Shown here: piece after piece, positions 361 through 50,799 of the stretch | How the letters are laid out: each line of letters begins with the position of its first letter | How positions within the stretch are numbered: the stretch's first letter is position 1 | NCBI GenBank assembly: GCA_964406895.1 | Contig: CAYOTK010000003.1 | Span: 9,529 to 73,528 of the forward strand | DNA length: 64,000 bases | DNA from: an uncultured Candidatus Saccharibacteria bacterium | GTDB lineage: Bacteria; Patescibacteriota; Minisyncoccia; Phycocordibacterales; PALSA-1337 | Reading direction: 5' to 3' | Position numbers and translations under genes: made by a program | Notes under the pieces: model-generated | The model's database searches: none | Told to the model about the DNA's origin: nothing | What the model saw: only the letters and a program-made list of their open reading frames with translations

Positions 361-398
361 CGCCGCTTGGCTTGTCCGAGCGGCTGGTTTTTTTATGA
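361..398 (+). terminator. rho-independent terminator candidate for the island-1 ORF
   Basis: ccgcttgg-cttgt-ccgagcgg hairpin (8 bp including one G-U pair) followed by ctggttttttt. Confidence 0.4.
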
Positions 399-429
399 GG
401 TCGGACCTTCAAAAGGTCCGACCTCAAAA
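397..429. repeat. palindromic repeat element copy 1 (GGTCGGACC-ttcaaaa-GGTCCGACC)
   Basis: Perfect 9-bp stem with a 7-nt loop. A near-identical copy, with the same GA/AAAA flanks, occurs at 50702-50735. Confidence 0.55.
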
Positions 430-469
430 CTTAATGAGTTATGCACAGAAAAATGTTTTAAAGTTTATC

Positions 470-510
470 AAAGTGGTATATAATATCAACCAAGTGGGAA
501 GAAGTAGCAA
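470..510 (+). promoter_or_regulatory. mraZ promoter region with candidate MraZ operator repeats
   Basis: TATAAT at 479-484. AGTGGT, AGTGGG and AGTAGC hexamers start at 472, 493 and 504, a spacing of 21 and 11 bp. This resembles the GTGGG direct repeats bound by MraZ upstream of dcw operons. Confidence 0.35.
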
Positions 511-9214: not shown

Positions 9215-12200
9215 ATGGACAGCGACGATAGCTACCCACGCCGAACCAGCGACCATAATGATACCAATAAGTTATCTTTCAAAAAGATAATTTTTCTTTT
9301 AGTTGGCATAATGTTCTTGCCTGGCATAGTTTATTCAGCGACTGGCGAGGTGCAGTTCAGTATTGCTTCTCAATATCAAATTGGTACGGCAGGAAGTTAT
9401 TTCAACAACGGCAATACTATTGCAAAAGTTTTCGATGGTGATTTGACTACTTGGTGGGATGCCAACCAATCATATGCGAATGGTTCAAATGTTGGTCTGG
9501 ATCTTACCGTAAATGCCAAGGTTACAAGAATGAGAGTGGCACCAAGAACTGGTTATACCGTGAGATTATTCGGTGCCGTATTGCAGGGAGCGACGGTAAG
9601 TTCAAGTACAGGACCTTGGACAACAATTTATACGATTCCTAGCTTCCCACCGTTCTATCCTCAGAGGCAACTCAATGAGATCTCTATAGATACTTCAGGA
9701 CAATATTACAGATATTATAGATTGGTGATGCCAAACGGGGCATACGGCTCGCTAGCGGAGATGAGATTGATAGGAGTAGCTTCTAGTACGACGCCATATT
9801 TACCAGTGGCGCCAACAATAAGTCCGATGGGAGGGAGGTTTCATCAACCGATACAAGTCAGTCTAAGTAGTCTGACAACAGACGCAACAATTTACTACAC
9901 AACAGATGGTACGACTCCAACATATAGTGGAGGTTCTCCACAAGGGACAACGCAGTTATATTCAGGACCGTTTATGGTAACAAATACTGCGACGACGACC
10001 GTCAAAGCTATTGCAGTTAGTGCTTCAACATATGTTTCTGAAGTTTCTGATACAGCGTATTTCTATATCAATCCATCATTTTATTCAGGCTGGAATTGGT
10101 ATGACACTTCAGGGCACCTCATAGAATCTCACGATGGCGGAATAAGTTATTTCAATGGTAAGTATTATTGGTACGGAGAAACTCTCAATAATAGTTCTCC
10201 CGAAATTGAGACGTTGGGTGCAACAGTTTATTCCTCGAATGACTTGCTCAATTGGAAATATGAAGGAATGGCATTATACGTCAACAATGCCTATAAACTA
10301 GAAAGACCGCATGTAATATACAATGCGACTTCAAGCACTTATGTTATGTGGGCACACAATGTGACGAATGCAAGAGCCGTCATTGCCACATCCAGTTCAC
10401 CGCTTGGACCATTTACAGCGTCTACTACATCTCAAAATCCAGACGGTATGGGCATGAATGATATGACTTTGTACAAGGATACAGACGGGACGGCATATCT
10501 TATATATACTTCAAGTGATAATACAAAGATGGTTATTTCTCGTTTAACGAGTGACTACGCTACTACTTCAAATACTTACATCACCTCATCAGCGAATGCC
10601 AATCGTAGCGCGCCTGCCGTATTCAAACGCGGTAGCATATATTTCTTGCTCAACTCCGGTCAAAACAGTTGGACAGCTACCGCCAATAAATATTCGACTT
10701 CAACAAGTATGTTGGGTACTTGGTCGACCCTTACAAATCCATTCCAATCAAGTGCAGAAGAAGATTATACTTTGGCCTATCATTCTCAAACCACTGATGT
10801 TCTTACGGTGCAGGGCAGAACAGATGGTTATGTATATATAGGCGACAGATTCGATGGTTCTGCGACCGCCTCGGGTTCTCTTTATAACAGTAGACATGTT
10901 TGGTTACCAATTACATTTCCTTATGCAGGAATGATGTCCATATCTTGGGCAAGTAGCTGGAGTTTGGACAGTGCATTTACTTCAGCGACCCTGCCAACTT
11001 CAGTTTCCAATCTTACAGCGACCAAAAACGGTTTATCAGTCAATCTTTCTTGGACTAACAATGAAACAAATTCATATAGCTTGTATTTGGATAGGGCTAC
11101 TGATAGTGCATTTACTCAAAATTTCATTTCAATATTTGCAAGTACAACTTTGAGTTCGTATACAGATTCAAATATCGTTAATGATACAAAATATTATTAT
11201 CGAATTCGAGTTATCACTGCGGCCGGGGTCAGCACATCATCGACTGTTATCGGTGATTTCTTACTATCTTCAGATACCACGGCTCCACAAGGCGAAATAA
11301 CAGTTCCGAGCAATGGAGCAACTGTGGTAGGCAGAACTGTTACACTTACTGCCTCTTCTTCAGATAATATTCAGGTCAGTTCTGTCCAATTCCAAGTCGA
11401 TAATGTAAACGTGGGTTCTTCCGGTGCAACATCGCCATATTCTATAACTTGGGATTCTACATCTGTATCAGACGGAGATCACACTATTCATGTTGTTGTA
11501 ACAGATAGTTCAGGCAATATCGCTACTTCAAGCGACGTAACTGTTCATGTTGCCAATCAGACTGTTACTGTAACTCCCGATGTCTCTACAATAGTCCAGA
11601 ATACAACCGGCAATACTATTGTTATAACAGGTAATGCGACATCATGGACGCCAGGCACTCCAGGTTCACCAACATTTAGTATAAGTGGGGGAACAGGTAC
11701 AACAATTACTAGTCAGACAGTTTCCAATAGCACAACAGCCACCCTAACTATTTCAGCGGGAAGTGCTGTTGGTACTTTCAAGATAATAGCGCCCGATAGT
11801 AATGCTTCAACAACTATAACTGTTTCGGCGGATACCATCGCACCTTTAGTTAGTATTACAACGCCGTCAGATGGCGCAACTCTTTCTGGATCAACTGTTA
11901 CTCTTACAGCATCGTCATCCGACAATGCAGCGGTTACAAGTGTTCAGTTCAAATTAGACAATGTAAGTATCGGTTCTTCAGGTGCAACATCGCCATATTC
12001 TATTACCTGGAATTCAACATCGGTGTCGGATGGTACCCACACTTTGGTTGCTGTCGTTGCGGACGGAGCAGGGAATATAAGTTCTTCTACAGCTATCAGT
12101 GTAACCATCAACAATTCTGTTGTGGCTTCTGTTTCGACATCAAACGCTTCATCCGTAGATATGTTTTCGGCTGTATTCAATGGTGTTATTTCAAATGATG

Positions 12201-15100
12201 GCGGTGCTAGTTCTACGGTGAAAGGTTTCCAATATGGTCTGACCAGTTCTCTCGGCACGACAATTTCCGAATCAGTTTTGGCAGGGGTCGGTAATTATTC
12301 TACAACCACAACAGGTCTTTCATGCGCCACTACATATTATTATAGATTCTATTCAACAAATCTTTCTGGAACTTCGTATGGTACAACCAAATCATTCACA
12401 ACATTGACTTGTCCTGCAGCCTCAGTATCAGGAGAAATACAATTTAGTACCGCATCGGCATACCAATTCGGTACTTCCGGTAGTTACAATAATAGTGGTA
12501 ACGTCATTTCAAAAGTTTTTGATAATGACGTTACAACATGGTGGGATTCTCAGACTGCAAACGGTGCTTATGCGGGATTGGATCTTAGAGTTCCACAAAT
12601 TGTTACAAGAATGAGAATTGCACCTCGAACTGGTTATACAGTTCGTGTTTATGGAGCCATTTTGCAGGGAGCGACAGTTAGTTCGACAACAGGTCCTTGG
12701 ACAAATATATACACCATACCTAGTTATCCTCCTTACTATGCGCAGAGACAGATGAATGAAATTGCAGTAGATACGGGTGGCAGTTCTTACAGATATTATA
12801 GGATAGTAATGCCTGATGGTACGAATGGTTCTTTGGCTGAATTCAAATTGATCGGTAATGCAGGAACAACGACGCCGTTTATTCCTGTAACTCCAACCAT
12901 AAGTCCAAATGGCGGGCAATATAGTTTGCCCATGAGAATAAGATTGAGTAGTTTGACTACCAACGCTTCGATCTACTATACAACTGATAATACAGTTCCT
13001 GCGGTTTCAAATGGCGTGCCTCAAGGCACTACACAACTTTATTCTGCTCCATTCACACTGAGCGCTTCGTCAACAGTTAGAGCGATAGCGGTGAGCACGC
13101 TCGGTCAAAACACTTTCACTTCAGAAGTTTCAGAACCATCATACTTTTATTTTGATACAGATTTCAAACCAGGCCAGAATTGGTACGATGAAGATGGTCA
13201 TCTCATAGAGTCTCATGATGGAGAAGTAGCATATTTCAATGGCAAGTATTATTGGTATGGACAGATATTCAACGGCAATGATCCTGAGAATGAAGCGGTG
13301 GGTGTTTCCGCTTATTCGTCGAGTGATCTTATTCATTGGAAAGATGAAGGTCCAATCATTTATATGGGTAGATCATATATGCTAGAAAGACCGCATGTTA
13401 TTTACAATGATTCAACACATAAATACGTTTTATGGGGGCATCACGTTATATCGTCAGGACATTCAACGGCTGTCGTTGCATATAACGATAGTCCTACGGG
13501 AGCATTCACTGTTGCAACAAGTTCATACAATCCTGATGGTTTGTATTTGAATGACATGAATCTTTACAAAGACGTAGATGGTCAAGCATATTTGTTATAT
13601 TCGATAGGTACAAATACTCAGTTCGTAATTTCTAGATTGACCTCAGATTATTTGCAAACTTCTGGTACGTATATAACTCCTGCCGTTCTTGCGGGTAGAG
13701 AAGCGCCCGCCATGATATTGAGAAATGGTGTGTATTTCTTATTAACTTCAGGCTTGTCTGGTTGGGCTCCAAATGAGAATAAATATTCAACTTCAACTAG
13801 TGTTATGGGTACTTGGTCATCTCTAGTAGATCCATTTCAAACAAGTGTTTTGGAGGATAGACTGACAGCATATCATTCTCAGACTACTGATATACAACAT
13901 GTACCAGGAAGAGGAGATGCTTATATTTATATTGGTGACAGATTCGATTATTCAAACACTTTGGCCGGCTCGCTTTATTATTCAAGGCATATATGGTTGC
14001 CCATGACATTCCCGACCAATAATACTATGTCTATAACGTGGGAACCGACTTGGAATCTAGACACTGTTTTCCCAACTGTTTATCCGCCTACAGCACTGAG
14101 CAATTTCACAGTTAGTAGAAGTGGCACCTCCGCAGACCTTTCTTGGACCAACAATGCCACGACATCTCACATGATATATGTAGATAGGGCAACTGATCAA
14201 AATTTCACTTCAAACGTAGTATCTGATCTTCGTCCCGAAGGTGCGACAACATTTACAGATTCATATTTATCATTGGGCACAGATTATTATTACAGAGTTC
14301 GTATAGTTAATGCAGACGGAACGAATTATTCAAGTACAGTTTCTACTATTGTAGTTGATAGTACGGCTCCAACACTTTCCTTGGCGTCTCCCTCTGGTAC
14401 TTTATCTATAAATACTACAAGTACATCTCTCAGTATTCAGACAAGTGAAAATGCTACATGTAAATATTCAACAATTTCCAATATTACATACTTGAGCATG
14501 ACCGCCTTCGACAACACAGGAGCTACCACGCACACGACAAATGTCAGTGGTTTGAGTAATGGTTCAACTTACAATTATTACGTCAAATGCGCAGACAGTT
14601 CGAATAATATAAGTGATCAAGCAACTATTACTTTCTCTGTGGCAAGTGAGACAGCGCCAACGCCTACACCGACCTCAGCATATGATCAGTCAGCCCATAC
14701 TTCATACGGTTCTTTTAATCTATATTATTACAACAAATATGTTGTACCAAACTTGCCACAAAATATTAAATCCAAGACAACTTCTAATAATCAGAAAAAT
14801 AATAATGTTTCAAGTTTCACTTCATTCAAGACAGAAATTAAAATGGGTTCTATAACAGAAGATGTTAGGGAATTGCAGAGGTTCCTGAATAAAAATGGTT
14901 TTCCAGTTGCGAAGACGGGCCCTGGATCCCCAGGCAAGGAAACAAATGTTTTCTCTACAGGAACTCAAGCAGCACTTATGAAATTCCAGGAAAAATACAA
15001 AAAACAGATTCTGGTTCCTGCTGGTCTCAATAAACCAAATGGTGTATTGGGTCCAAATACTAGGAAGCTCATTAATTCTATGAATGGAAAAAATAACTAG
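9215..15100 (+). CDS. giant secreted/cell-surface protein (1961 aa) with a tandem-duplicated module
   Basis: Each module reads, in order: F5/8-type-C (discoidin) domain with the TTWWD motif; CHB_HEX_C-like Ig domain (IYYTTDGT); GH43-like five-bladed beta-propeller (YKDTDG, S.DL..W, EAPA...YFLLTSG); FN3; Big/Ig domains. The C-terminus carries a PG_binding_1-type peptidoglycan-binding domain (LQRFLNKNGF...GPGSPG...QAALMKFQEKY). N-terminal signal/TM. Confidence 0.85.
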   Translation: MDSDDSYPRRTSDHNDTNKLSFKKIIFLLVGIMFLPGIVYSATGEVQFSIASQYQIGTAGSYFNNGNTIAKVFDGDLTTWWDANQSYANGSNVGLDLTVNAKVTRMRVAPRTGYTVRLFGAVLQGATVSSSTGPWTTIYTIPSFPPFYPQRQLNEISIDTSGQYYRYYRLVMPNGAYGSLAEMRLIGVASSTTPYLPVAPTISPMGGRFHQPIQVSLSSLTTDATIYYTTDGTTPTYSGGSPQGTTQLYSGPFMVTNTATTTVKAIAVSASTYVSEVSDTAYFYINPSFYSGWNWYDTSGHLIESHDGGISYFNGKYYWYGETLNNSSPEIETLGATVYSSNDLLNWKYEGMALYVNNAYKLERPHVIYNATSSTYVMWAHNVTNARAVIATSSSPLGPFTASTTSQNPDGMGMNDMTLYKDTDGTAYLIYTSSDNTKMVISRLTSDYATTSNTYITSSANANRSAPAVFKRGSIYFLLNSGQNSWTATANKYSTSTSMLGTWSTLTNPFQSSAEEDYTLAYHSQTTDVLTVQGRTDGYVYIGDRFDGSATASGSLYNSRHVWLPITFPYAGMMSISWASSWSLDSAFTSATLPTSVSNLTATKNGLSVNLSWTNNETNSYSLYLDRATDSAFTQNFISIFASTTLSSYTDSNIVNDTKYYYRIRVITAAGVSTSSTVIGDFLLSSDTTAPQGEITVPSNGATVVGRTVTLTASSSDNIQVSSVQFQVDNVNVGSSGATSPYSITWDSTSVSDGDHTIHVVVTDSSGNIATSSDVTVHVANQTVTVTPDVSTIVQNTTGNTIVITGNATSWTPGTPGSPTFSISGGTGTTITSQTVSNSTTATLTISAGSAVGTFKIIAPDSNASTTITVSADTIAPLVSITTPSDGATLSGSTVTLTASSSDNAAVTSVQFKLDNVSIGSSGATSPYSITWNSTSVSDGTHTLVAVVADGAGNISSSTAISVTINNSVVASVSTSNASSVDMFSAVFNGVISNDGGASSTVKGFQYGLTSSLGTTISESVLAGVGNYSTTTTGLSCATTYYYRFYSTNLSGTSYGTTKSFTTLTCPAASVSGEIQFSTASAYQFGTSGSYNNSGNVISKVFDNDVTTWWDSQTANGAYAGLDLRVPQIVTRMRIAPRTGYTVRVYGAILQGATVSSTTGPWTNIYTIPSYPPYYAQRQMNEIAVDTGGSSYRYYRIVMPDGTNGSLAEFKLIGNAGTTTPFIPVTPTISPNGGQYSLPMRIRLSSLTTNASIYYTTDNTVPAVSNGVPQGTTQLYSAPFTLSASSTVRAIAVSTLGQNTFTSEVSEPSYFYFDTDFKPGQNWYDEDGHLIESHDGEVAYFNGKYYWYGQIFNGNDPENEAVGVSAYSSSDLIHWKDEGPIIYMGRSYMLERPHVIYNDSTHKYVLWGHHVISSGHSTAVVAYNDSPTGAFTVATSSYNPDGLYLNDMNLYKDVDGQAYLLYSIGTNTQFVISRLTSDYLQTSGTYITPAVLAGREAPAMILRNGVYFLLTSGLSGWAPNENKYSTSTSVMGTWSSLVDPFQTSVLEDRLTAYHSQTTDIQHVPGRGDAYIYIGDRFDYSNTLAGSLYYSRHIWLPMTFPTNNTMSITWEPTWNLDTVFPTVYPPTALSNFTVSRSGTSADLSWTNNATTSHMIYVDRATDQNFTSNVVSDLRPEGATTFTDSYLSLGTDYYYRVRIVNADGTNYSSTVSTIVVDSTAPTLSLASPSGTLSINTTSTSLSIQTSENATCKYSTISNITYLSMTAFDNTGATTHTTNVSGLSNGSTYNYYVKCADSSNNISDQATITFSVASETAPTPTPTSAYDQSAHTSYGSFNLYYYNKYVVPNLPQNIKSKTTSNNQKNNNVSSFTSFKTEIKMGSITEDVRELQRFLNKNGFPVAKTGPGSPGKETNVFSTGTQAALMKFQEKYKKQILVPAGLNKPNGVLGPNTRKLINSMNGKNN

Positions 15101-33630: not shown

Positions 33631-34074
33631 ATGAAGATAATTTTACTGAAAGATGTTGCGAAATTAGGAAGGAAATATGACGTCAAAGACGTGAATGAAG
33701 GCCATGCATTGAATTTCCTCATACCTCAAGGCTATGCGGTTTCTGCCACTCCTTCTGCTTTGAAGAAGTTAGAGACAGATAAGGTTAAAACAGAGATGGA
33801 AAGGCGTGTTCAAGAGGAACTATTAGCTAAGAATTTGAAAGAAATAGAAAATGTAACTTTGCAATTTGTTGGTAAAGCCAATGAAAAAGGTCATTTATTT
33901 GCTGGTATTCATGTAACAGAGATCGTTTCAGAATTGTCCAAGCAATTCAGATTGAATATTGATCCCTCCATTGTTGTATTGGAACACCCTATAAAAGAGG
34001 TTGGGGAACACACCGTCGAAATCAAGAATGGTAATAAGAATGTAAAACTCAATATTGTTATAAAAGGGGAGTAG
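33631..34074 (+). CDS. rplI: 50S ribosomal protein bL9
   Basis: MKIILLKDVAKLGRKYDVKDV... Confidence 0.9.
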   Translation: MKIILLKDVAKLGRKYDVKDVNEGHALNFLIPQGYAVSATPSALKKLETDKVKTEMERRVQEELLAKNLKEIENVTLQFVGKANEKGHLFAGIHVTEIVSELSKQFRLNIDPSIVVLEHPIKEVGEHTVEIKNGNKNVKLNIVIKGE

Positions 34075-34087
34075 TATAAACAAAAAA

Positions 34088-34116
34088 CCCCTCGACAAGC
34101 TCGAGGGGTTTTTTGT
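34088..34116. terminator. bidirectional terminator between convergent rplI and rpmA
   Basis: aaaaaa-cccctcga-caagc-tcgagggg-ttttttg. Confidence 0.6.
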
Positions 34117-34127
34117 TTGTTGATTTA

Positions 34128-34400
34128 TTATTTTACGTGAACAATCTTCTTTCTGTCTATGTCATTATTGAAACTTGTCTTTCTTTTTGTCGAGAATTCG
34201 ACTACGCCGTTCTTGAGAGCAAAAAGCGTATAGTCTTTACCTGTTCCTACGTTCTTGCCAGGTAGAACTGTTGTGCCTCGTTGGCGAACTATGATCTGTC
34301 CAACTGTGATTTTCTGGCCATGATTAATCTTAACTCCAAGATATTTTGGGTTTGAATCTCTTCCGTTTTTGGTTGTACCTGCCGCTTTCTTATGTGCCAT
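34128..34400 (-). CDS. rpmA: 50S ribosomal protein bL27
   Basis: [24 protein letters not shown]... Confidence 0.9.
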
Positions 34401-34583
34401 ATAAGTAAAATATGATTGTTAGTGACTGAAAGCATAACATTTGCAATGAAATTATGCAAGGTGGTGTACTATTGCATTAAATCGATATTTCTCTCAAGAC
34501 TCACAACATTTATGTTTTGAATCTAGTTGAGTGCCCCACATTGCTGTGAGGCCGAGATTACTTCAATCTCGAAAGTGATTGGG

Positions 34584-35306
34584 TTAACTTCCAGTTGACG
34601 CTCTCGTCGCCTTGTCTTTTGCGAGTTCAGCCGCTGCTTGCCTGTAGATTTCTCCTTTATCGAGCGTCAAACCGAAGTCAATCGTGGCTGTGTTCCAGAT
34701 TCGATCAAATGCGTTCTCGCAATGTCCGATCCAGTTGCCAGCGTGAATCACGCTGTGGCGAGCCACATTCGGTACGACCCTAATTGACTCGAATTCGTCT
34801 TGTGCTGCGAGAACTCTGTAGGCAGCACTGATGAGTCGTTGCGAGACCGTCGATTCACCGAGTCCGTCCCAGTAGGGATTTCCTTGACCGAGGAAGTTGA
34901 GCGAACCAACTGACTCACGGAGTCGGGCGAACATTTCTTCGCAGGTCTCGACTTTTTCCCTTGCGGCTTGGTTTTTGTTTTCTAAACGATCAAGCCATTT
35001 GAGACACGCAAACGACATGGAGCCAATCACTACGACCCAAGGAACGCCATAGGTGCCGTGGGAAGTAATAGCAATTACCAACATTGCCGCGGTGAGACCG
35101 TAAAGCAATAATAGGATACGGTTGCTTTTTTTACAGTTTCGACTAACCTGATTAATAGCTACGTTTCTTTCTTGCGCGGCCTTAATCAAGCTGTGACCCT
35201 GGTTCACCTTGTTCTCCCACTTCAAGCGGAGACTCTCCGAGACGACACGCATCAAGCACTCGATTTCTTCGTTACTAATTTTCATGGATCTTTCTTTCAA
35301 TGCCAT
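34584..35306 (-). CDS. hypothetical membrane protein in a high-GC island
   Basis: 240-aa ORF at ~54% GC with a central TM helix. No family recognised. Confidence 0.4.
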   Translation of the reverse strand: MALKERSMKISNEEIECLMRVVSESLRLKWENKVNQGHSLIKAAQERNVAINQVSRNCKKSNRILLLLYGLTAAMLVIAITSHGTYGVPWVVVIGSMSFACLKWLDRLENKNQAAREKVETCEEMFARLRESVGSLNFLGQGNPYWDGLGESTVSQRLISAAYRVLAAQDEFESIRVVPNVARHSVIHAGNWIGHCENAFDRIWNTATIDFGLTLDKGEIYRQAAAELAKDKATRASTGS

Positions 35307-35561
35307 TTTAGACCATGGGGTTGTAGCCCATCTCTACAAGCTTGTGACCTGTAGAAATACTTCATGCAGTCTAGAACAGTTGGCGGCTATTCTTACATAA
35401 TTATACTATACATGTGTCGACAATGTCAATATTATGTACAGTTAACCATATGGGGTGATGTTCGATTAACCTTTTGGTATAATAATAATAAATCACGCGT
35501 GTTCATATAAAAAGAAGAGGCCAGAGGTTAGTCCGGCTTCTCTGTGTATTCGGTTCCTTAG

Positions 35562-35804
35562 TTACTCTTCACGAGACAATCCGAAGTCGCGACGTCGCTT
35601 GTTTCTGCGCATCTCAGTGACCGAATCGCTTATGCCCGCTACTTCGCTGAATCCACCTCTACAAAGGTGGTGTTGCTCGTGCGGAGGGCCATGATGGTGC
35701 CAACACCTTTTTTCATCGGTAAGCGCCGCTGAAGAAATTATTTCGAGGTGTTTCCGGGTGGGCTTAAGCCCCTCGAGATAAAGACCTATTAAATGTTTTA
35801 GCAT
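35562..35804 (-). CDS. hypothetical 80-aa His/Cys-rich protein in a high-GC island
   Basis: CWHHHGPPHEQHHLC. TTGACA and TATAAT lie just upstream on the minus strand. Confidence 0.3.
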   Translation of the reverse strand: MLKHLIGLYLEGLKPTRKHLEIISSAALTDEKRCWHHHGPPHEQHHLCRGGFSEVAGISDSVTEMRRNKRRRDFGLSREE

Positions 35805-36113
35805 ATTTTCATGATTATAGTACTATGAATAAGTATAGTATGTCAACTTTTGGTAATAAAACATTCTGTATGTAATTAATACGTATAATGCATCGTCTCG
35901 TCATAATTTAAGAGTCATTTCTACCAATCCAGTCCTCATTTTTTGCAGTATGGTCATAATAAATGGCTTAAAATAAGGGTATTTTGGGTCAAAAATATGG
36001 CTCTATATAAGGGTTTTGGGGGTGTAGACCCATTGACAGGGAAGTGCAAATCTGCTACACTTATTGCACAATGAGTTAGTGAGCGTCATGCTTACAAAAC
36101 TCGTTTTTAATTT

Positions 36114-36578
36114 ATGACAGAACTTACAACTGGTGTAGTGTTCCTTATGTCTTCGCTATATGGTGCCGGTCAAGTAAATGCTACAGCAAATGCCACCGTT
36201 ATTCCTACAGCAACAGACAAACAGGGCATTGAATCTGTTACAGAAAAGGACTTCAATGATTCGAAAGTAGTTGAACAGTACGTTAAAAAAGAATATGCAA
36301 GCGAACCTCTTCTTATAGAAATTGCCAGATGTGAATCTACTTTCCGTCAGTATGACAAGGATGGTACGGTTATACGTGGTAAGGTCAATAAGAACGACGT
36401 TGGCATAATGCAAATTAACGAAAAGTATCACGGCGAGACAGCGGCCAATCATGGTTATGATATATATACCGTGAAGGGTAATCTAGACTTCGCCAAATAC
36501 CTTTATGAGAAATATGGTGCTTCACCATGGTCAGCTTCGGCCAAATGTTGGTCAGGAGGTGATGTTGCGATGAAGTAA
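36114..36578 (+). CDS. secreted lytic-transglycosylase / lysozyme-like (SLT-like) protein
   Basis: Signal peptide; an E-S catalytic motif (ARCESTFRQ) and GIMQIN, as in SLT domains. TTGACA-N17-TACACT lies upstream. Confidence 0.55.
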   Translation: MTELTTGVVFLMSSLYGAGQVNATANATVIPTATDKQGIESVTEKDFNDSKVVEQYVKKEYASEPLLIEIARCESTFRQYDKDGTVIRGKVNKNDVGIMQINEKYHGETAANHGYDIYTVKGNLDFAKYLYEKYGASPWSASAKCWSGGDVAMK

Positions 36579-36618
36579 TCACTTCTCAAGGTATTGCATA
36601 CACTCAACTAATATAACC

Positions 36619-36651
36619 AAAAAACCCGCAGAGAGATCTGTGGGTTTTTTG
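36619..36651. terminator. bidirectional rho-independent terminator
   Basis: aaaaaa-cccgcaga-gaga-tctgtggg-tttttt. Confidence 0.55.
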
Positions 36652-36747
36652 GTGTGTACTTGGCTGTAGAAACGTTAGCAACCATGCACATTTAGCAAGC
36701 AGAGGAGGGTGTGACATTTTCTAGTTGTTTTTTATTCATGAATAGAA

Positions 36748-36954
36748 TTATACAATATCTTCAAGTAACTTCTTAGCAACATCCCACTTAGGAGATTTGT
36801 GTTCATTCATGTATTTTGCGAGTAATTCCTGAGATTCTTTTCGAAATAATTCCACCACTTCTATTTCGGGGAATATCTCCTTATATCCAACAGGTAATGC
36901 TTTTTTATCAATTGCTTTTATTGAACCTGTGAAATTATCCGGCAAAGCATACAC
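36748..36954 (-). CDS. hypothetical protein
   Basis: 68-aa ORF. Confidence 0.3.
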   Translation of the reverse strand: MYALPDNFTGSIKAIDKKALPVGYKEIFPEIEVVELFRKESQELLAKYMNEHKSPKWDVAKKLLEDIV

Positions 36955-37003
36955 AATTTAAGAACTAGAACAACATATCCTTTTTGTTTATTTTGCATAA
37001 TAT

Positions 37004-37246
37004 TTATTTAAATGTTGAATAAATTATATTGATTAATCCTGAAAAAATGACAAGAAAAGCGACAATTACTAATGGACAGAAGAAGCTCCACCACATCCGC
37101 TTTTTATCCTTCTTTTTAAGGATTGGATCATCTTGATCCGATGCCTTTACAGCAAAAACAATACCGAGAATTATTCCGATTGGAAGCAACAAAGCGAGTG
37201 ATAATCCTATACCTGTGTATGTAATTACATTGATTATTGGCATCAT
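37004..37246 (-). CDS. hypothetical small membrane protein
   Basis: 80 aa with two TM helices. Confidence 0.35.
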   Translation of the reverse strand: MMPIINVITYTGIGLSLALLLPIGIILGIVFAVKASDQDDPILKKKDKKRMWWSFFCPLVIVAFLVIFSGLINIIYSTFK

Positions 37247-37251
37247 GATAT

Positions 37252-38112
37252 TTACTGTGAACCTCGCAATTTTGCCTGATACTGGATTGCGGCCAACTTA
37301 CAGATTTGTTGCGCCTTGTTGTTATCACTAACTAGATCACAACGGTTAAAAACAGCGTAACAAGTGACTTTTCCTTTGTCTCCATTCATGAGCGAACATG
37401 TATTTACGTCTAACGGTCGTGAATCCGAAAGAAGAGGTGTGCTAGTGCCTATTAGGTTAGGATTGCTCGAAAGTGTAATTATAAATATAAGACATTTATT
37501 TTGTTGATCAGCAGATAAAGACTGACAATAAGCCAAGGCCTGGTCAGTAGTCTTTCCTTGGAGTGTTTTCATAAGCTGGACTGTCTGCTTTCCTTCAGAA
37601 ATACCTTTAGAAATTCCAGTACCCAATCCGATAACTAAAGGACCGATAATGCCAAGAATGAGTAAAATTACTACGATAACGACAAAATGTTTGTCGACTT
37701 TCTTGATCGACAGATTCTCTCGATCAATTGATCCGGTAACAAAGTAGTCTTTAATTTTGAGAAAATACCACAAAATTACGGCGTCAATCAGAATTGAAAA
37801 AATATTTGAGGAAATAGTCTGATATGGAATAAAGATGAAAACTACTGACAAAATCAGATCTATTGTTAATAGTGCCATTACAACACGATACAAAGATTGA
37901 CCCGGTCTTCGGATAGTAATAAATAACAGGATATAGAAGACTAAGCCGAATATTTCGTACCCGATATGGAGAGGTGTGATTATTCCCGAAATACCCCATG
38001 AGCTACTTACTGCAATGACTCCGACAAACCCGACTATTGCCAGAATAGCTGCAATTATTGTTAAGACCTGTAATAATTTTAGTCCCAATGTCAATCTATT
38101 TTTTGGTTTCAT
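37252..38112 (-). CDS. hypothetical polytopic membrane protein
   Basis: 286 aa with several TM helices. Confidence 0.5.
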   Translation of the reverse strand: MKPKNRLTLGLKLLQVLTIIAAILAIVGFVGVIAVSSSWGISGIITPLHIGYEIFGLVFYILLFITIRRPGQSLYRVVMALLTIDLILSVVFIFIPYQTISSNIFSILIDAVILWYFLKIKDYFVTGSIDRENLSIKKVDKHFVVIVVILLILGIIGPLVIGLGTGISKGISEGKQTVQLMKTLQGKTTDQALAYCQSLSADQQNKCLIFIITLSSNPNLIGTSTPLLSDSRPLDVNTCSLMNGDKGKVTCYAVFNRCDLVSDNNKAQQICKLAAIQYQAKLRGSQ

Positions 38113-38649
38113 ATTAATAATTATTTTTTAATAAAATACTCAAAACTTTTGCTATATATCTTCGCAAACCGCTGGAGCTCAACAATATCAACTTTCTGTT
38201 GCCCGGATTCAATATTTGAAATATGCGATTGTGGTCGTCTTATATACTTAGCAAATTCAAATGGACTTGACCATAATAGTACAATGGTCTATCCAAATTA
38301 TCAATATTCAAAGGTTATGACACGTCAATTGGTTGTAGGGGAGTGTGCAGGAGGCCTTTGGCTGGTATTCGATCTTTTCTGAATCCATGAATTCGATATC
38401 AAGGAGTGGGGTTCTGATCGTTATCGGTTTCTTGAGACCTGGGGAAGTGAAGATGAAGAATAAGGAGGGAACAGAACTCGAACTAGCAAATTTTAACGAC
38501 TTTTAATGTTGGTAGGGAGGCCCTTACTAGCCGGGCTTTGCTCTCAAACCTCTGGGCCTATTGTATGTCGCACAATATATCTTTTGCGACGTTTACAGCG
38601 TTTTAAATACTGATTTCGCGCGGGTCTACCCTGCTGGAGGATTTTTTTA

Positions 38650-38979
38650 TTAGTTTTGAATTTGTCGAATCGGAGGCAATGTCGGAGCGTTTGATCTTAT
38701 ACTGTCTGGCTCCCCATTCTTGATCTTGGTCAGGTTCTCTATCGCTGGTTGCCATATAAGCGGTATAAAAACTTTGTTCCAAACATAATCAGCGGGCTTT
38801 TTCAAATATCCATTCCAAGTATTCACGACTAGGCTTTTGACGTATCCGAAGTTATCCTTGCCTGTTGGTGAATTGACTATGTTTCTAAGGTTGAGTCCGA
38901 AGTAACTTAAAATCAATAATGCAACGACAATTATTAAAATAGTTTTTATGAGACCTTGATTATATGTTTTATATTTCAT
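38650..38979 (-). CDS. hypothetical membrane protein
   Basis: 109 aa with an N-terminal TM. Confidence 0.4.
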   Translation of the reverse strand: MKYKTYNQGLIKTILIIVVALLILSYFGLNLRNIVNSPTGKDNFGYVKSLVVNTWNGYLKKPADYVWNKVFIPLIWQPAIENLTKIKNGEPDSIRSNAPTLPPIRQIQN

Positions 38980-39061
38980 GATTATATTTTAACTCTAAAA
39001 TCAATTCTTGAATATGTCTAATGTGAACATTTATATCACTTAAACGACAAAATATAATTTT

Positions 39062-40351
39062 TTAAAGATAAGAAAGCGGATTTAGATACGCCTTGAAGTC
39101 AGCTACTGGCAAACGTACTCCACGACAGTTACGACTATTTGTCAACTTAACAACTTCTATACCTTGTGAAGCATAAACTCCAAAGTGAAGATGAGGGCCT
39201 GTGGTGTATCCGGTATTACCACTATAGCCTATGATTTGACCAGTAGAGACAGACTGGCCTTCGGATACAGACTGCAGCGATAGATGAGCGTAAAGAGTAC
39301 TAAGACCATTCGGGTGCTGTATGAGAACCCATTTGCCATATGAGTAACAGGTTCTAACCGTGCCAGTATTGCCTACCCCTACGACAGTACCAAGAAGCGC
39401 TGATTTGACAGGGGTGCCGACAGAAGCGCGCAAATCAATACCATTATGACCTTTACCATTATAGACTTGGGCATTTGCAGTAGCGAAGTCAGTATTGCCG
39501 AAATATTGCGTTATAGTTACAGCATCCAAAGGCCACGACAGAACACCTGAACCAGTTTTGGGTAGTTTCGATGTATCAATCATAATTTTGAGTTGAGATT
39601 CGAAATCGAGAATTTCCTTTTCGATCGATTGTTTCAGTTCTTGCTTATTGGCCAGTATTCTCTGATATTCAGCTTCTGATTGTTTGGTTTCATTCAGGAG
39701 TTGATTCTTTTCATTGGTAGCGCTTTTGACCAAATCTCTTTGATTGTTCAATTCATTCTTGAGAGCGATGAGGTCATTTTTAGCTTTTTCACTGGCTTTC
39801 TTATTGGCTTCCAAGTCGAGTTTGATATTGTTCAAAGTATTTATGCGATCATAAAGTCTTCCTTGAAGAGAGTTTAGTTTTTCCATGCTGGACAAAGTTT
39901 CAGCTATAGAATTGTTACTAAGAACTTTTTCTATAAGACTGTTGTTATCTGTCTTGTATATTTCTTTGAAGACATTATCGATAATTCTTTTGTCGTCTGA
40001 AATATCATCTTCCTTTGAATGAATCTGAGAATTGAGGTTTGAGATTTCGTAGTTTTTATTCTCGATTTTATTCTCGGTGATTTTTATGTCGGCTTCGAAT
40101 TTCTTCCTTGTAAGATCCAATGACTTGATGGCCGATTTGAGAGAATTGGCTTGTTGTCCCAAATCATCTATTTGATTCTGGTATGACTTGATCTCTTTCT
40201 CGAGATTTGCGATATCTTGATTACGTTTCTCGATTTGTTTCTGGATTTGATCGATGGTATCTGCCCTGCTGGTTGTAGTTGCAAAACAAAAAATCGCAGT
40301 GATAATGAGTAAACTGGATATTGCGGGTATTATGTTTCTTCTTTGAAACAT
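39062..40351 (-). CDS. M23 family metallopeptidase with an N-terminal coiled coil (EnvC-like murein endopeptidase)
   Basis: HNGIDL and GPHLHF M23 motifs, plus a long coiled coil. Confidence 0.8.
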   Translation of the reverse strand: MFQRRNIIPAISSLLIITAIFCFATTTSRADTIDQIQKQIEKRNQDIANLEKEIKSYQNQIDDLGQQANSLKSAIKSLDLTRKKFEADIKITENKIENKNYEISNLNSQIHSKEDDISDDKRIIDNVFKEIYKTDNNSLIEKVLSNNSIAETLSSMEKLNSLQGRLYDRINTLNNIKLDLEANKKASEKAKNDLIALKNELNNQRDLVKSATNEKNQLLNETKQSEAEYQRILANKQELKQSIEKEILDFESQLKIMIDTSKLPKTGSGVLSWPLDAVTITQYFGNTDFATANAQVYNGKGHNGIDLRASVGTPVKSALLGTVVGVGNTGTVRTCYSYGKWVLIQHPNGLSTLYAHLSLQSVSEGQSVSTGQIIGYSGNTGYTTGPHLHFGVYASQGIEVVKLTNSRNCRGVRLPVADFKAYLNPLSYL

Positions 40352-40355
40352 TGTT

Positions 40356-41705: not shown

Positions 41706-41731
41706 GAAGATATTATAGCTTAATTTGTAAA

Positions 41732-41761
41732 CAAAAACAGCCTCGGGTGAGGCTGTTTTTG
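41732..41761. terminator. bidirectional rho-independent terminator
   Basis: aaaaa-cagcctc-gggt-gaggctg-ttttt. Confidence 0.55.
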
Positions 41762-41772
41762 CGAGGCGAATA

Positions 41773-42279
41773 TTAGCCTTTTATGTCGATCGTTGCTTCA
41801 GAAGTTGCCTTGAAGACTTTCATAATAACCTTACCACTTGAATCTTTCATTTCTAGATCTTTGGTTGCGTCGAATTTCTTGTCACCATCATCAGCATGCA
41901 ATACAGCATAGTATGTACTACCATCAACTGTTGGTGATGTTAGTGTTACTTTGCCCGGAGCTATACCTTTGTCGAAGTATGCTGTGCCAAGAACTGCGCC
42001 TGGTTTGCCAGCATTGTCTTTGTGTATAACCACAAATCCTGGTTGCTCAAGAGCAACTGAAGAAAGATAAACAATGTTGCCTGGATATTGATCTGTCATA
42101 ACAATGCGATTTGCACTGTTCGTTGTTTCAGTTGGAGCAGGAGTATTATCGACTACTGGCTCTACTGGGCTGCTCTTCTTGCCGAATACCATGACACCTA
42201 TAATAATAAGTGCAATGATGACTATGATAGTAACGACCCACTGCCACATTTTGACGCCATTTGATACGTTAGGTTCCAT
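41773..42279 (-). CDS. hypothetical membrane-anchored protein
   Basis: 168 aa. N-terminal TM, then a Pro/Thr linker, then a beta-rich domain. Confidence 0.45.
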   Translation of the reverse strand: MEPNVSNGVKMWQWVVTIIVIIALIIIGVMVFGKKSSPVEPVVDNTPAPTETTNSANRIVMTDQYPGNIVYLSSVALEQPGFVVIHKDNAGKPGAVLGTAYFDKGIAPGKVTLTSPTVDGSTYYAVLHADDGDKKFDATKDLEMKDSSGKVIMKVFKATSEATIDIKG

Positions 42280-42339
42280 ATATAATGTTATTAAGTACTA
42301 ATAAAAGTCGACTTTGTTTTAGATCTCTATTGTAGCATA

Positions 42340-43467: not shown

Positions 43468-43478
43468 ATAATTTGAAT

Positions 43479-44573
43479 TTAACTTTCTCTAGATACATTC
43501 CCTATCATTCCTGCTGCGCCCAAAGTTACAATGAGTGCTGTACCTCCATGACTTACGAATAAAAGCGGAATACCCGATAAAGGTAATAGTCCTAGCATAG
43601 CTGAAATGTTCATGAATGATTCTGTGACAATAAGTATAGCAATTCCGATTGCTAATAGTCCACCAAATAGGTCTTTGGATCTTGTGCCTATCCTGAAGCA
43701 ACTTATAGCAAATATGATGTACAGAGAAATAAGTATAATGCTACCAATGAAACCGAATTCTTCTGCTGCAACAGCGAAAACTGAATCATCGGTCGGTTGA
43801 GGTAAATAGCCGAATTTCTGTATACTTTGACCGAATCCCCTACCGGCTATTTGTCCTGATCCTATAGCGATAAGTGATTGATTGATTTGATATCCTGCGC
43901 CTTGCGCATCGCCACCTCTGTGTAAGAAAGTCATGAATCTTTGCTTCGCATAAGGCCTGAAATATATTACACCGCCCACAACTACAGCCATGATAAGCAA
44001 AGAAATCAAGAAATGTCGTATGGGTAAACCCGCCACTAGTAACATGACCATACCCGTAAATCCAATTATAACCAGAGTATCGGTATCTGATTGAGCAAGT
44101 AGAAGAAATGTAAGCAATATCATAATTGCCACATAAGGTAATAATCCGAATTTCATCATTTTGATCTTGTCTTTTACAAAATGTGCCCAAGCGGCAACAT
44201 AAATAATAAAAGCAATTTTCATGAATTCACTTGGCTGGAATGATAGCGGACCTACATTGATCCATCTAGATGCTCCGCCGTGGTAGAGGGCAATTCCTGG
44301 GAAGAATAAAAGAAGATTAGCTATGACAGCTCCGAGTAAAATAAAAAATGCCAATTTCCTGAGCAAGTTGTGATTGATTCTCGAAAAAATGAAGAACATT
44401 ATGATGCCGAGTATCAGACTGATTGTTTGTTTCATCGCTACTGTGCCAAAACTTACCCCGTCTTGAGCTAAGAGACCTAGAGATGCAGATAGAAATACTA
44501 TGAAACCTGTAATAGTTAGTGTAATAACAGAAAAAAGAAAAAGTCTGTCAATTTTTTTTGCTTTCGTCGACAT
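43479..44573 (-). CDS. ftsW: SEDS-family peptidoglycan glycosyltransferase FtsW/RodA
   Basis: 364 aa with about 10 TM helices, immediately upstream of murG. Confidence 0.85.
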   Translation of the reverse strand: MSTKAKKIDRLFLFSVITLTITGFIVFLSASLGLLAQDGVSFGTVAMKQTISLILGIIMFFIFSRINHNLLRKLAFFILLGAVIANLLLFFPGIALYHGGASRWINVGPLSFQPSEFMKIAFIIYVAAWAHFVKDKIKMMKFGLLPYVAIMILLTFLLLAQSDTDTLVIIGFTGMVMLLVAGLPIRHFLISLLIMAVVVGGVIYFRPYAKQRFMTFLHRGGDAQGAGYQINQSLIAIGSGQIAGRGFGQSIQKFGYLPQPTDDSVFAVAAEEFGFIGSIILISLYIIFAISCFRIGTRSKDLFGGLLAIGIAILIVTESFMNISAMLGLLPLSGIPLLFVSHGGTALIVTLGAAGMIGNVSRES

Positions 44574-45151
44574 TATGATTTTTCTTTGTTTATAGGATCA
44601 GAATTGTTGGATTTCTCTATCGCAGAATTTTTGAATGAATCAATTTCTTGTCTAACTTTTTCGAATTCTGGTATGTCTGAAATGTTATTCACGCCAAGGT
44701 GAGCCAATAATTGCAATGTGGGTTTGTATAAGAAGCTACGCATGTCTTTGGGATTGTCTACTCTCTCTATCAAACCGCGTATTGATAAGTTGCGGATTAT
44801 GAATTGTGAATTTACACCACGTATATAATCAATATCTGCACGGGAAATTGGTCCTTGATATAGGATGATTGAAAGTGTTTCCAACCCCGCTTTACCCAAG
44901 TCGCGTATTAGTTCTTCTTTGGTTAGTTTCTCAATGAGAGGTGAAAGTTCTTTCGCTGTACCCAACATCACATCGCTGTCAGTTTGCACTAATGTCAGCC
45001 CTCTGTTATTCAGGTTGTTTTGCAATTCATCCAAGCCTTTTTTAATTGATTCACTGTCGCATTCTAGGAATTTGGCTAGTTTTTCTATTGATACAGGCTC
45101 TGCTTTCCAAAACAATATAGCTTCGATTTTTTGAGAAAGATTCGTATTCAT
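44573..45151 (-). CDS. scpB: segregation and condensation protein B
   Basis: Winged-helix ScpB region (IEAILFWKAEPVS). Confidence 0.85.
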   Translation of the reverse strand: MNTNLSQKIEAILFWKAEPVSIEKLAKFLECDSESIKKGLDELQNNLNNRGLTLVQTDSDVMLGTAKELSPLIEKLTKEELIRDLGKAGLETLSIILYQGPISRADIDYIRGVNSQFIIRNLSIRGLIERVDNPKDMRSFLYKPTLQLLAHLGVNNISDIPEFEKVRQEIDSFKNSAIEKSNNSDPINKEKS

Positions 45152-45202
45152 GTCTGAATTATAACTTATAGAAGTCGGACCTCCAAGAGGTTGAACCTCG
45201 TA

Positions 45203-45934
45203 CTAATATCTTGGCACTCCCACCTCTTTTGTCTCCATTTGAATATCTCCGAATGTTGATTCTTGCTGAACATGGAGAATGCCATTTTTGACTAATTCAA
45301 GCATAGCCAAAAAACTGACAATAACGTGAACGCGATTCTCACGATTTTCTCGAGTAAATTCTTTGAAACTCATTCTTATATGACTAGTGATTCTATTCGA
45401 TAGAGTATTTATCATCTCTTCCAAACTCATTACTTTCTGAATAACCTTGTTTGGTATCTTCTCATTTTTTGGTAAACGGATTATGAGATCTTTGAGTAAT
45501 TGCAAAGCCTTGTTCAGTGTAAATTCAGGGTCTGGAGTGAATACGGGTTCTGTCTTGCGCATTTGTGATTGCTCAAATATTATATTTTGTCCGAATATTT
45601 CACTTATTTTCAAACTGGCTTGTTTGATGACTTTATAAATCTTAAGGCGAGTTTCTAGATCTTTGATGTTGCTCTCTTCTTCGTCGGTTAGACTTAATTC
45701 AGGTAAAAGAGATTTTGATTTTATGAGAAGTAATGTAGACGCTATCAAAATGAAATGAGCTGACTCACCCATCGGAATATTTGAAAACTGTTTTATATGT
45801 TCGATGAAATCATCAGTAACTTTGGCTAACGAAATATCATTTATGAATAATTTTCTTTTCTCGATTAGTTCGAGAAGTAATTCTAGCGGTCCCTCGAAAG
45901 ATTGTGTCTTTATTGTAAATGACATTTTTATCAA
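45203..45934 (-). CDS. scpA: segregation and condensation protein A
   Basis: FEGPLELLLELIEKRKL ScpA N-terminus. Confidence 0.85.
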   Translation of the reverse strand: MIKMSFTIKTQSFEGPLELLLELIEKRKLFINDISLAKVTDDFIEHIKQFSNIPMGESAHFILIASTLLLIKSKSLLPELSLTDEEESNIKDLETRLKIYKVIKQASLKISEIFGQNIIFEQSQMRKTEPVFTPDPEFTLNKALQLLKDLIIRLPKNEKIPNKVIQKVMSLEEMINTLSNRITSHIRMSFKEFTRENRENRVHVIVSFLAMLELVKNGILHVQQESTFGDIQMETKEVGVPRY

Positions 45935-45937
45935 GGA

Positions 45938-46888: not shown

Positions 46889-46950
46889 GCGGTAATTATA
46901 ACAAATAAGGTTAAAGGGTAAAAGGTAACTTTGAGTTTTAAGCTAATATG

Positions 46951-49847: not shown

Positions 49848-49878
49848 GGTTGTTAATGATTAAGTTTTTAAATTTATA

Positions 49879-49914
49879 TTGACAACTAATAGTTATTGAC
49901 TTACAATTGTGTTG
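49879..49914 (+). promoter_or_regulatory. consensus sigma70-type promoter
   Basis: TTGACA-N17-TACAAT. Confidence 0.5.
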
Positions 49915-49935
49915 AACCCTAAACCAACTGATCAC

Positions 49936-50073: not shown

Positions 50074-50097
50074 CGCGTCTTGTCCCATTTCACTCGT

Positions 50098-50133
50098 CCG
50101 ACTGGCGTCATGCTGGTCGGGCGGCTTTTTTTT
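50098..50133 (+). terminator. rho-independent terminator
   Basis: ccgactggc-gtcat-gctggtcgg followed by gcggcttttttttt. Confidence 0.45.
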
Positions 50134-50217
50134 ACAACGAACTTACTAATCCACAAAGTTCTATCTCGCAAAGTTGATCCTTGAATTTATCTTATTTTTC
50201 CTAATTATTTCCAACAT

Positions 50218-50603: not shown

Positions 50604-50637
50604 GATCGCCCACTTTCAGGGCAGAATGTAACTCCGA

Positions 50638-50665
50638 AGCCGTGCGCAAGTGCGGCTTTTGTTTT
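50638..50665 (+). terminator. rho-independent terminator
   Basis: agccgtgc-gcaa-gtgcggct followed by tttgtttt. Confidence 0.4.
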
Positions 50666-50701
50666 ACCTTATTTGTCATTTCAATGAACTTACCAATCCA
50701 C

Positions 50702-50735
50702 GAGGTCGGACCTCTAAAAGGTCCGACCTAAAAAA
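50702..50735. repeat. palindromic repeat element copy 2 (GGTCGGACC-tctaaaa-GGTCCGACC)
   Basis: Near-identical to the copy at 397-429. It lies just 3' of an island ORF terminator, as copy 1 does. Confidence 0.55.
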
Positions 50736-50799
50736 TTAGAAAGCAGGCGCTCTTATTTTTATATTAGTTAAAAGATAAAGTGAAGAATAAGGAGAAACT

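Follow-up and report, generated by a model that had tools for sequence, protein, structure and literature searches.

Paired palindromes in a Saccharibacteria genome are probable REP-type repeats of a RAYT transposase system

We analysed a 64,000-nucleotide (nt) stretch of DNA, hereafter the window, from an uncultured Candidatus Saccharibacteria bacterium (contig CAYOTK010000003.1, positions 9,529 to 73,528), which carries three short palindromic elements, two of them intact and one degenerate. These palindromes are very probably short non-autonomous hairpin repeats of the repetitive extragenic palindrome (REP) type, resembling REPINs (inverted pairs of REP units) in miniature and belonging to a system run by a REP-associated tyrosine transposase (RAYT). 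This reading rests on the repeat itself, on its linkage to RAYT genes in other genomes, on the co-variation of unit type with the RAYT gene and on the presence or absence of the element between strains. The window elements are neither terminators nor cassette recombination sites. Taken by itself, the window holds three ordinary-looking intergenic REPs, and the interest lies in the family to which they belong.

A pattern search for GGTCGGACC-N7-GGTCCGACC found exactly two matches in the window (399-423 and 50704-50728), and relaxing the spacer to N5-9 returned the same two, against an expectation of 0 from 100 dinucleotide shuffles. An earlier note on this DNA was right to report two near-identical palindromes, and right too about their common flanks, since both begin with GAGG and run into an A-rich 3' flank. 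Copy 1 (396..426) reads t-GAGGTCGGACCT-TCAAA-AGGTCCGACCTC-a and copy 2 (50702..50729) reads GAGGTCGGACCT-CTAAA-AGGTCCGACCT; both match the pattern exactly and neither is assigned to a strand. The underlying repeat unit is an 11-mer, AGGTC[G/C]GACCT, palindromic save for its central base, and each intact element is an inverted pair of such units set 16 nt apart from start to start (398-408 in the G form and 414-424 in the C form for copy 1; 50703-50713 and 50719-50729 for copy 2). Folded as single-stranded DNA, copy 1 forms a 14-bp stem (396-409 with 413-426) around a CAA loop (dG -16.7 kcal/mol, z -8.8), and copy 2 forms an 11-bp stem (50703-50713 with 50719-50729) around a CTAAA loop (dG -13.1, z -6.6). 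In both, unit 1 pairs with unit 2, the inverted-pair hairpin by which REPINs are recognised. The 9-bp stem and 7-nt loop first proposed are thus present as a pattern, but the actual pairing is longer.

No additional copy of GGTCGGACC-N5-9-GGTCCGACC appeared in the window with 3 mismatches tolerated. The earlier count of two holds for exact copies, but it overlooked a degenerate third at 45171..45199 (no strand assigned; repeat family D5), which reads GAAGTCGGACCT-CCAAG-AGGTTGAACCTC (full sequence GAAGTCGGACCTCCAAGAGGTTGAACCTC). Its second unit, AGGTTGAACCT, located by a palindromic-unit scan at 45188-45198, is a compensated variant of the form AGGTTSAACCT, and in DNA folding copy 3 no longer forms a single long hairpin. 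The window contains five palindromic AGG-N5-CCT units where 0.59 are expected, all five inside the three elements, and all three elements are intergenic, none lying within a gene. The palindromes match no Rfam family: only a tRNA-Glu passes the gathering threshold in the window, and around the elements the best scores reach 20 bits against thresholds of 50-90.

To see the repeat in other genomes, we scanned one genome per species (185,579 species) for exact matches to AGGTCGGACCT-N3-7-AGGTCCGACCT, which returned 44 loci in 30 species-representative genomes, each as a stretch of at most 8 kb. Across these genomes flanks and spacers vary while AGGTC[G/C]GACCT stays constant, and the 11-mer is also found as a lone unit, with palindromic extensions that vary, and as tandem repeats. 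Most loci (27/44) are labelled Patescibacteria or candidate phyla radiation (CPR), namely Saccharibacteria, Microgenomates, Parcubacteria, Curtissbacteria, Nealsonbacteria and WWE3; 4/44 are labelled 'bacterium', 3/44 Faecousia or Anaerolineae, and 10/44 'uncultured Gammaproteobacteria', these last being third-party assemblies (L013, L014, L017, L019, L023, L025, L027, L032, L033 and L044). Two of the latter, L027 and L032, carry the RAYT family, and the Gammaproteobacteria label looks unreliable because L032 is near-identical around its RAYT gene to the Microgenomates locus L007. A metagenome-wide scan for the spacer type of the window, AGGTCGGACCTYYAAAAGGTCCGACCT, found only two contigs, both of the JALOBW01 genome and already among the loci found, and tblastx of the window against the motif loci gave no close relative.

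Homologues of HUH/tyrosine (Y1_Tnp) transposases are encoded in 10/44 of these stretches; we estimate that 8 kb picked at random from a ~1-Mb genome would include any given single-copy gene in ~1% of cases. Around six complete RAYT genes the unit lies no more than ~110 nt away on either side, and two more that are cut by contig ends have it on the visible side, giving eight flanked genes out of ten. The RAYT genes of L030 and L034 are flanked by unrelated palindromes, CTTACGAGGCGAAGCCTCGTAA and TTTCCCGTACCCCTGGGGTACGGGAAA, and further flanked RAYT loci occur beyond the 44 (L057, L067, L068 and L069). At L005 the gene (MKRIFFETDEIYHVYNRG...LMPNHFHLL...YIHFNP) stands between one doublet and eight tandem units that read GAGGTCCGACCTCCAAAA. 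Of the three options offered in the earlier note, the REP option is the one supported: RAYT-type HUH/Y1 transposase genes in other genomes have this unit at their flanks. As a separate observation, one clade has head-to-tail arrays immediately beyond the 3' end of its RAYT gene (L005 2129-2251, L053 3738-3861, L055 3748-3800), with eight or more units of the genome's own type in a single orientation at a period of 15-16 nt. A CRISPR reading of the L005 array was discarded, its 16-nt periods having no spacers.

The type of unit changes together with the enzyme. The RAYT genes with 53-65% identity to the L005 one include three (65%, 60% and 58%) that share a common upstream gene of ~1,130 aa, and these three carry tandem AGGCCCGGCCT, tandem AGGTTCAACCT or AGGTCSGACCT. 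By locus, L005 has AGGTCCGACCT eight times in tandem, L053 tandem AGGCCCGGCCT, L055 tandem AGGTTCAACCT and L066 AGGCTSAGCCT; more distant RAYT genes are accompanied by GCGAAGGYCAGACCTTCGC (L067) or by the unrelated palindromes of L030 and L034, and among the homologues TACAAGGTTCAACCTTGTA and ACAAGGTCSGACCTTGT are seen as well. Five AGG-N5-CCT types (AGGTCSGACCT, AGGCCCGGCCT, AGGTTCAACCT, AGGCTSAGCCT and AGGYCAGACCT) plus two unrelated palindromes stand beside homologous genes, and the AGG-N5-CCT units share one plan, in which the lower stem varies, AGG/CCT above it is invariant and five bases form the centre. Among 65 distinct units, positions N4:N8 form U-A pairs in 51, C-G pairs in 11 and are unpaired in 3, while N5:N7 form C-G in 47, U-A in 16 and are unpaired in 2; at the correct register pairing is seen in 72.7% of cells, compared with at most 45% at shifted registers. 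These counts are to be read with the rows not independent, several coming from one genome, and with the AGG/CCT columns fixed by the way units were selected.

A second tie between repeat and enzyme lies inside the gene. Five RAYT genes contain an in-frame copy of the REP of their own genome, ~24 codons before the HUH motif (L012 3026-3036, L030 7462-7472, L067 10180-10190, L068 4159-4169 and L069 4159-4169). The internal copy includes the genome-specific lower stem and matches the flanking type in 5/5 cases, that of L030 being the unusual CGAGGC-NNN-GCCTCG type of its genome. It encodes QG[S/R/P/Q]T[L/F], and a G-x-T-[hydrophobic] sequence occurs upstream of the HUH motif in 45/118 relatives, mostly as QGSTL or QGRTL, and in 30 of those 45 exactly 24 residues before the HUH methionine. 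No internal copy is present in P0001-P0006, the clade closest to the spacer type of the window. The internal REP copy could reflect self-regulation, or the repeat could have originated from the gene.

Between closely related strains the elements come and go. Copy 1 lies upstream of mraZ, and among contigs from several samples that encode an identical MraZ protein the element at this site is intact in the window, L045, L047 and L050 (spacer TCAAA or CCAAA), mutated in L046, and absent from L048 and L049, both of which retain the two upstream open reading frames (ORFs); the length difference at the site is 28 nt. Another copy, CGAGGTCGGACCTTTTGGAGGCCCGACCTCG, lies directly past the aspS stop codon in L046 and L048 and not in L045. 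For copy 2, a look-up of the 83-aa ORF returned no record of strain variants, and contigs with the exact DnaK/GrpE end at the borders of the dnaK-grpE insert or, if longer, before copy 2; for copy 3, a look-up of ScpB returned the same strain only.

The first alternative is that the hairpins are locally evolved regulatory structures, such as back-up or bidirectional terminators or stabilisers of mRNA 3' ends, which arose convergently and are not mobile. Both intact copies do lie just past an ORF and its terminator, as the earlier note had it, and both are very stable hairpins. Secondary roles of a terminator or stabiliser kind have also been proposed for classical REPs (PMC3733652). Further, three matches outside CPR, in Faecousia (L024 and L042) and Anaerolineae (L031), consist of a hairpin followed by a T-run and resemble, and may be, ordinary terminators. 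However, neither strand of the window palindromes has a T-run after the hairpin and neither was called as a terminator, and a canonical one already precedes each copy: a terminator-like hairpin with T-run at 362..394 (plus strand; hairpin 362-384) ends the upstream ORF 2 nt before copy 1, and another with a T-tail at 50636..50669 (plus strand; hairpin 50636-50659) ends the 83-aa ORF ~32 nt before copy 2, both being context rather than part of the elements. Moreover, the 11-mer turns up in 30 genomes, where its settings are unrelated and include tandem arrays, the interior of ORFs and the surroundings of RAYT genes, and the element is gained and lost among strains, all of which makes a local regulatory origin improbable.

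Alternatively, the 11-mer might be a duplex site for a symmetric protein, either the operator of a conserved Patescibacteria regulator or an uptake sequence often found in inverted pairs. Palindromy that extends to all but the central base and is kept by compensatory changes would suit a dimer on duplex DNA, as would a core conserved over many CPR lineages, and the occurrence of the unit both between and within genes recalls DNA-uptake sequences, which show just such a mixed distribution. Yet known uptake sequences occur at densities far above the 5 units per 64 kb found here, and the genes downstream of the elements (mraZ, scpB and a small ORF) have no function in common. Nor would a duplex site predict a unit on both flanks and in the interior of a transposase gene, switching type with that gene, and we regard this explanation as very improbable.

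The enzyme is RAYT-like, which favours the REP/RAYT reading, and its nature also bears on a third explanation, in which the elements are remnants of insertion sequence (IS) ends of the IS200/IS605 type, that is, subterminal hairpins left after transposase loss and never dispersed on their own. The protein matches Pfam Y1_Tnp (PF01797) at 28.7 bits (cutoff 23), and its sole NCBIfam match is REP_Tyr_transpos (NF047646) at 36.2 and 28.3 bits, below the cutoff of 80. The HUH motif MPNHFHLL (H88/H90) and Y148 in YIHxNP are invariant across 41 aligned sequences. A family profile searched against PDB sequences has E. coli TnpA-REP (4er8) as its top match, and the AlphaFold model (pLDDT 85.5) finds its best PDB fold match in 4er8_A (E 2.4e-6; title 'REP associated tyrosine transposase bound to a REP hairpin'), above the TnpA proteins of IS608 and ISDra2. 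The enzyme is ~220-245 aa long compared with 165 aa for the 4er8 chain. Its family comprises at least 1,950 database proteins, the named ones being 'transposase' of Paceibacterota, Parcubacteria, Minisyncoccota and Omnitrophota, and includes P0002, a close RAYT homologue 76% identical to the L005 enzyme. Membership of the same Y1_Tnp superfamily, and a gene bracketed by hairpins like an IS, would fit the remnant explanation. On the other hand, the top structural match is TnpA-REP and not an IS transposase, no tnpB-like partner was called beside those transposase genes whose neighbours were listed, none of the three short window elements has a Y1 gene or fragment beside it, and the units occur as isolated doublets, tandem arrays and in-frame copies within genes; IS-end remnants are accordingly a highly unlikely source.

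Finally, although two copies lie beside small ORFs of unknown function and somewhat raised GC content with their own promoter and terminator, and some related strains have a tyrosine recombinase gene beside grpE, it is scarcely credible that the elements are integron attC-like recombination sites at the ends of acquired cassettes, because an attC is an imperfect palindrome with RYYYAAC...GTTRRRY core sites that follows a promoterless cassette with intI/attI nearby, whereas these are perfect 28-31-nt palindromes with no RYYYAAC/GTTRRRY core sites in their flanks, the neighbouring ORFs have promoter-like and terminator-like sites of their own, the recombinase in L060-L062 is strain-specific and at a different position, the ORFs persist in L048 and L049, where the element is missing, and copy 3 sits between core genes. 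No attC-like features are seen, though no search of the window was aimed at an integron integrase. None of the four alternatives predicts linkage to the transposase gene or the switching of unit type with that gene, and the first and the last are in addition contradicted directly, by the terminator calls and the strain comparison respectively.

The same observations bear on the proposal that the palindromes mark the right edge of high-GC cassettes and reflect a common insertion mechanism for such islands. L048 and L049 keep both island ORFs upstream of mraZ while lacking the element; therefore, element and island are gained and lost independently. A GC transition does occur at copy 1, where positions 1-396 have a GC content of 0.535 against a window mean of 0.393, but not at copy 2, where the ORFs to the left (0.44-0.49) are close to dnaK (0.458) and higher-GC ORFs also lie to the right. 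Since GC is high on both sides of copy 2, copy 1 alone fits the cassette-edge description at best, and with copy 2 in the middle of its insert and copy 3 between scpA and scpB the proposal is not supported.

Several points weigh against the REP/RAYT reading. A search for an HUH gene found no RAYT gene in the window (tblastn; family hidden Markov model best E 0.49), nor was one present in the ~20 kb of extra strain sequence from the strain loci L045-L065. With only three elements in 64 kb, the density is low by the standards of classical REP families. The AT-rich flanks differ among strains too, so that filled and empty sites lack clean limits and exact site boundaries cannot be drawn. Palindromy up to N5:N7 is left unexplained by a hairpin of one unit. 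Furthermore, most described REPs are defined by a conserved tetranucleotide, GTAG or CGTC, on the 5' side of the hairpin foot (PMC3479197, PMC3733652, PMC6006769). No GTAG/CGTC stands at the foot here, where the bases that precede the stems differ from case to case (TATG, CACG, CAGCC, AACA, TTGCG and others); the only invariant part is internal, the AGG...CCT at the stem top.

How REP-type repeats of this kind might spread can be sketched by analogy with the published model for E. coli, in which TnpA-REP recognises a folded single strand together with a GTAG on its 5' side, cuts at CT and is able to carry out strand transfer (PMC3479197). REPINs are regarded as the unit mobilised by RAYTs (Bertels and Rainey 2011, PMC3116915). 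Single-stranded DNA, as arises for instance at replication forks, would let the element fold into a hairpin, and the RAYT would bind this hairpin through the conserved AGG...CCT at the stem top. The enzyme would then cut with its HUH motif and catalytic tyrosine and rejoin strands, so that copies could be excised or inserted elsewhere. Copies would be expected to build up where they do little harm: just past terminators, between genes and in permissive protein loops. Recognition of the hairpin, its cleavage and its mobilisation in trans are thus inferred from the known enzymes, and the source genome presumably has, or once had, a RAYT of its own.

In other genomes the doublets also occur inside genes. 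At the motif loci, 27/69 doublet matches lie within stop-free stretches of at least 120 codons, a count into which overlapping matches from the tandem array of L005 also enter, as do several short stretches that are probably due to chance. We followed up 15 in-gene cases, of which 14 are in ORFs of at least 250 aa; in-frame doublets are at L010 1824-1851, L014 3358-3385, L021 6000-6028, L030 5723-5751, L033 1041-1067, L035 4249-4276, L038 6198-6226, L041 4196-4223, L026 4981-5008, L028 1526-1634 and L003 4399-4426. Judged from their translations, the host ORFs include a Mur-ligase-like protein, LeuRS, a P-type ATPase, ComEC and Mfd, the last with a doublet at the same site in two Nealsonbacteria; tool matches identified a penicillin-binding protein similar to the FtsI of the window, MiaB and Der. 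The encoded peptides are, for example, EVGPxxRSDL and GGRTSxGGPTS. Those of Der and MiaB fall in alignment gaps relative to solved homologues, and Der proteins 77-86% identical to the L035 protein are without the EVGPQVRSDL segment. In L019 (Nth-like) translation probably begins downstream of the copy. More tentatively, and with our confidence falling a little short of evenly divided, we suggest that all this may represent an undescribed Patescibacteria-wide REP/RAYT system with an apical AGG-N5-CCT core in place of a 5' GTAG/CGTC tag, in which many transposase genes hold an in-frame cognate REP, a hint of self-regulation or self-targeting, and 30-nt doublets repeatedly sit in frame in loops of essential genes (Der, Mfd, MiaB, LeuRS, penicillin-binding protein and ComEC).

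We also noted a second repeat family, with GGGAATGAC, beside AGGTCSGACCT units in two genomes (L006 20-60 and 700-770; L012 3460-3556). A linker insert in the Der proteins P0168, P0172 and P0175 (…HSSLxEVxRNDK…) could be encoded by this GGGAATGAC family.

Within the window, copy 1 has on one side a 166-aa ORF whose function is unknown and on the other the mraZ-rsmH-ftsL-ftsI-murF cluster, and a promoter-like site for mraZ, TTTAAA-16-TATAAT, follows 30 nt downstream (457..484, plus strand). Copy 2 is within a 2.4-kb insert (49848-52232) bordered by dnaK (47925-49847, minus strand) and grpE (52233-52829, minus strand) and made up of small ORFs that match nothing in Pfam and have individual promoter-like and terminator-like sites. 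A segment of ~60 nt of this insert, consisting of the terminator tail and GAACTTACYAATCCAC, is duplicated 547 nt apart, and its first copy is followed by a possible decayed doublet: the direct repeat D1 (74% over 42 nt) places an uncertain decayed paralogue of copy 2 and its 5' flank at 50132..50185 (plus strand), whose flank TTaCAAcGAACTTACtAATCCAC recurs at 50679-50701 and whose next ~30 nt are weakly doublet-like. The 16-mer GAACTTACYAATCCAC itself (at 50139 and 50686) was rejected as a part of the element, being missing at copies 1 and 3 and not significant alone. Copy 3 lies between the core genes scpA (45203..45934), with a Pfam SMC_ScpA match in the related locus L064, and scpB (44573..45151), identical to the SMC_ScpB protein looked up at that locus. 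ORFs adjoining the elements have no significant Pfam domain.

Other features were recorded in passing. Mobile genes vary among strains whose GrpE or MraZ proteins are identical: in L060 (1438-2520) and L061 (115-1197) the ribosomal protein genes upstream of grpE are replaced by a 360-aa tyrosine recombinase, and a 573-aa serine recombinase follows murF in L048 (6062-7783) and L049 (5885-7606). Directly past the grpE stop codon is an inverted repeat whose 36-nt arms match perfectly (52056-52091 and 52171-52206) and are separated by 79 nt, and among related-strain contigs one stops just past grpE and another begins 4 nt before dnaK. A 1,961-aa ORF (window 9215-15100) has glycoside hydrolase 43 and Ig-like domains according to precomputed Pfam matches, with an internal duplication of ~3.08 kb at 70-75% identity (for example 9521-9774 and 12602-12855). 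At ~34 kb the strand of most long ORFs switches from plus on the left to minus on the right, and the cumulative GC skew has its maximum near 46-47 kb; this switch and peak (window ~34000-47000) could be a replication terminus or a rearrangement point.

To our knowledge, REP/RAYT systems have been studied almost only in Proteobacteria, where they are regarded as long-lived, vertically inherited genome passengers. Patescibacteria genomes are ~1 Mb in size with little intergenic space, and a REP/RAYT relative in this group would extend the system to a markedly different, genome-reduced part of the bacterial tree. It would also supply a second, simpler recognition architecture to set against the E. 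coli TnpA-REP/GTAG model. In-frame copies, if general, would allow a test of the idea that mobile DNA shapes the loops of proteins, and 30-nt doublets in loops of essential genes, if true, a source of protein-loop variation in ultra-small genomes. The internal copies raise the possibility that the transposase is controlled through its own target site. In practical terms, the repeats coincide with assembly breaks and with strain-level differences in metagenome-assembled genomes. Within the literature that we searched there is no description of REP/RAYT in Patescibacteria, nor of the sequence itself; one 2026 preprint reports a RAYT KEGG match in an archaeon.

We know of no transposase linked to the palindromic elements of Rickettsia, and the REPINs of Pseudomonas are several times longer than the elements described here. 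Like the Rickettsia elements (PMC10969869), the present repeats include in-frame, non-destructive palindromes in housekeeping genes of reduced genomes, here in Patescibacteria other than the window's source; unlike them, they are inserts of ~30 nt (10-11 codons) rather than ~150 bp and are tied to a RAYT family. With IS200/IS605 elements (IS608, ISDra2) they share a Y1 HUH fold, hairpins that flank the gene and presumably a chemistry on single-stranded DNA; they differ in that the hairpins are dispersed far from the transposase, with no tnpB partner seen and no 5' guide tetranucleotide identified. The likeness to REPINs (PMC3116915) is closer, as two inverted units form one long hairpin, although the spacer is 3-7 nt, the element is 27-29 nt, and direct tandem arrays of at least eight units occur beside the RAYT gene. 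As for the REP or bacterial interspersed mosaic element (BIME) repeats and TnpA-REP of E. coli, Pseudomonas and Stenotrophomonas (PMC3479197, PMC3116915, PMC5581495), RAYTs there are described as single-copy per genome and domesticated rather than IS-like (PMC5581495). The present system differs from these in that its stems are perfect rather than bulged, its unit is only 11 nt and itself palindromic, its enzyme is longer, scores below the NCBIfam RAYT cutoff and in some genes contains an internal REP, and its hosts are Patescibacteria, which go unnamed in the RAYT surveys that we consulted. What the two have in common is the overall design: short palindromes dispersed between genes as single, inverted-pair and clustered units, repeats that flank an HUH/Y1 gene, and a repeat that changes with the lineage of its enzyme.

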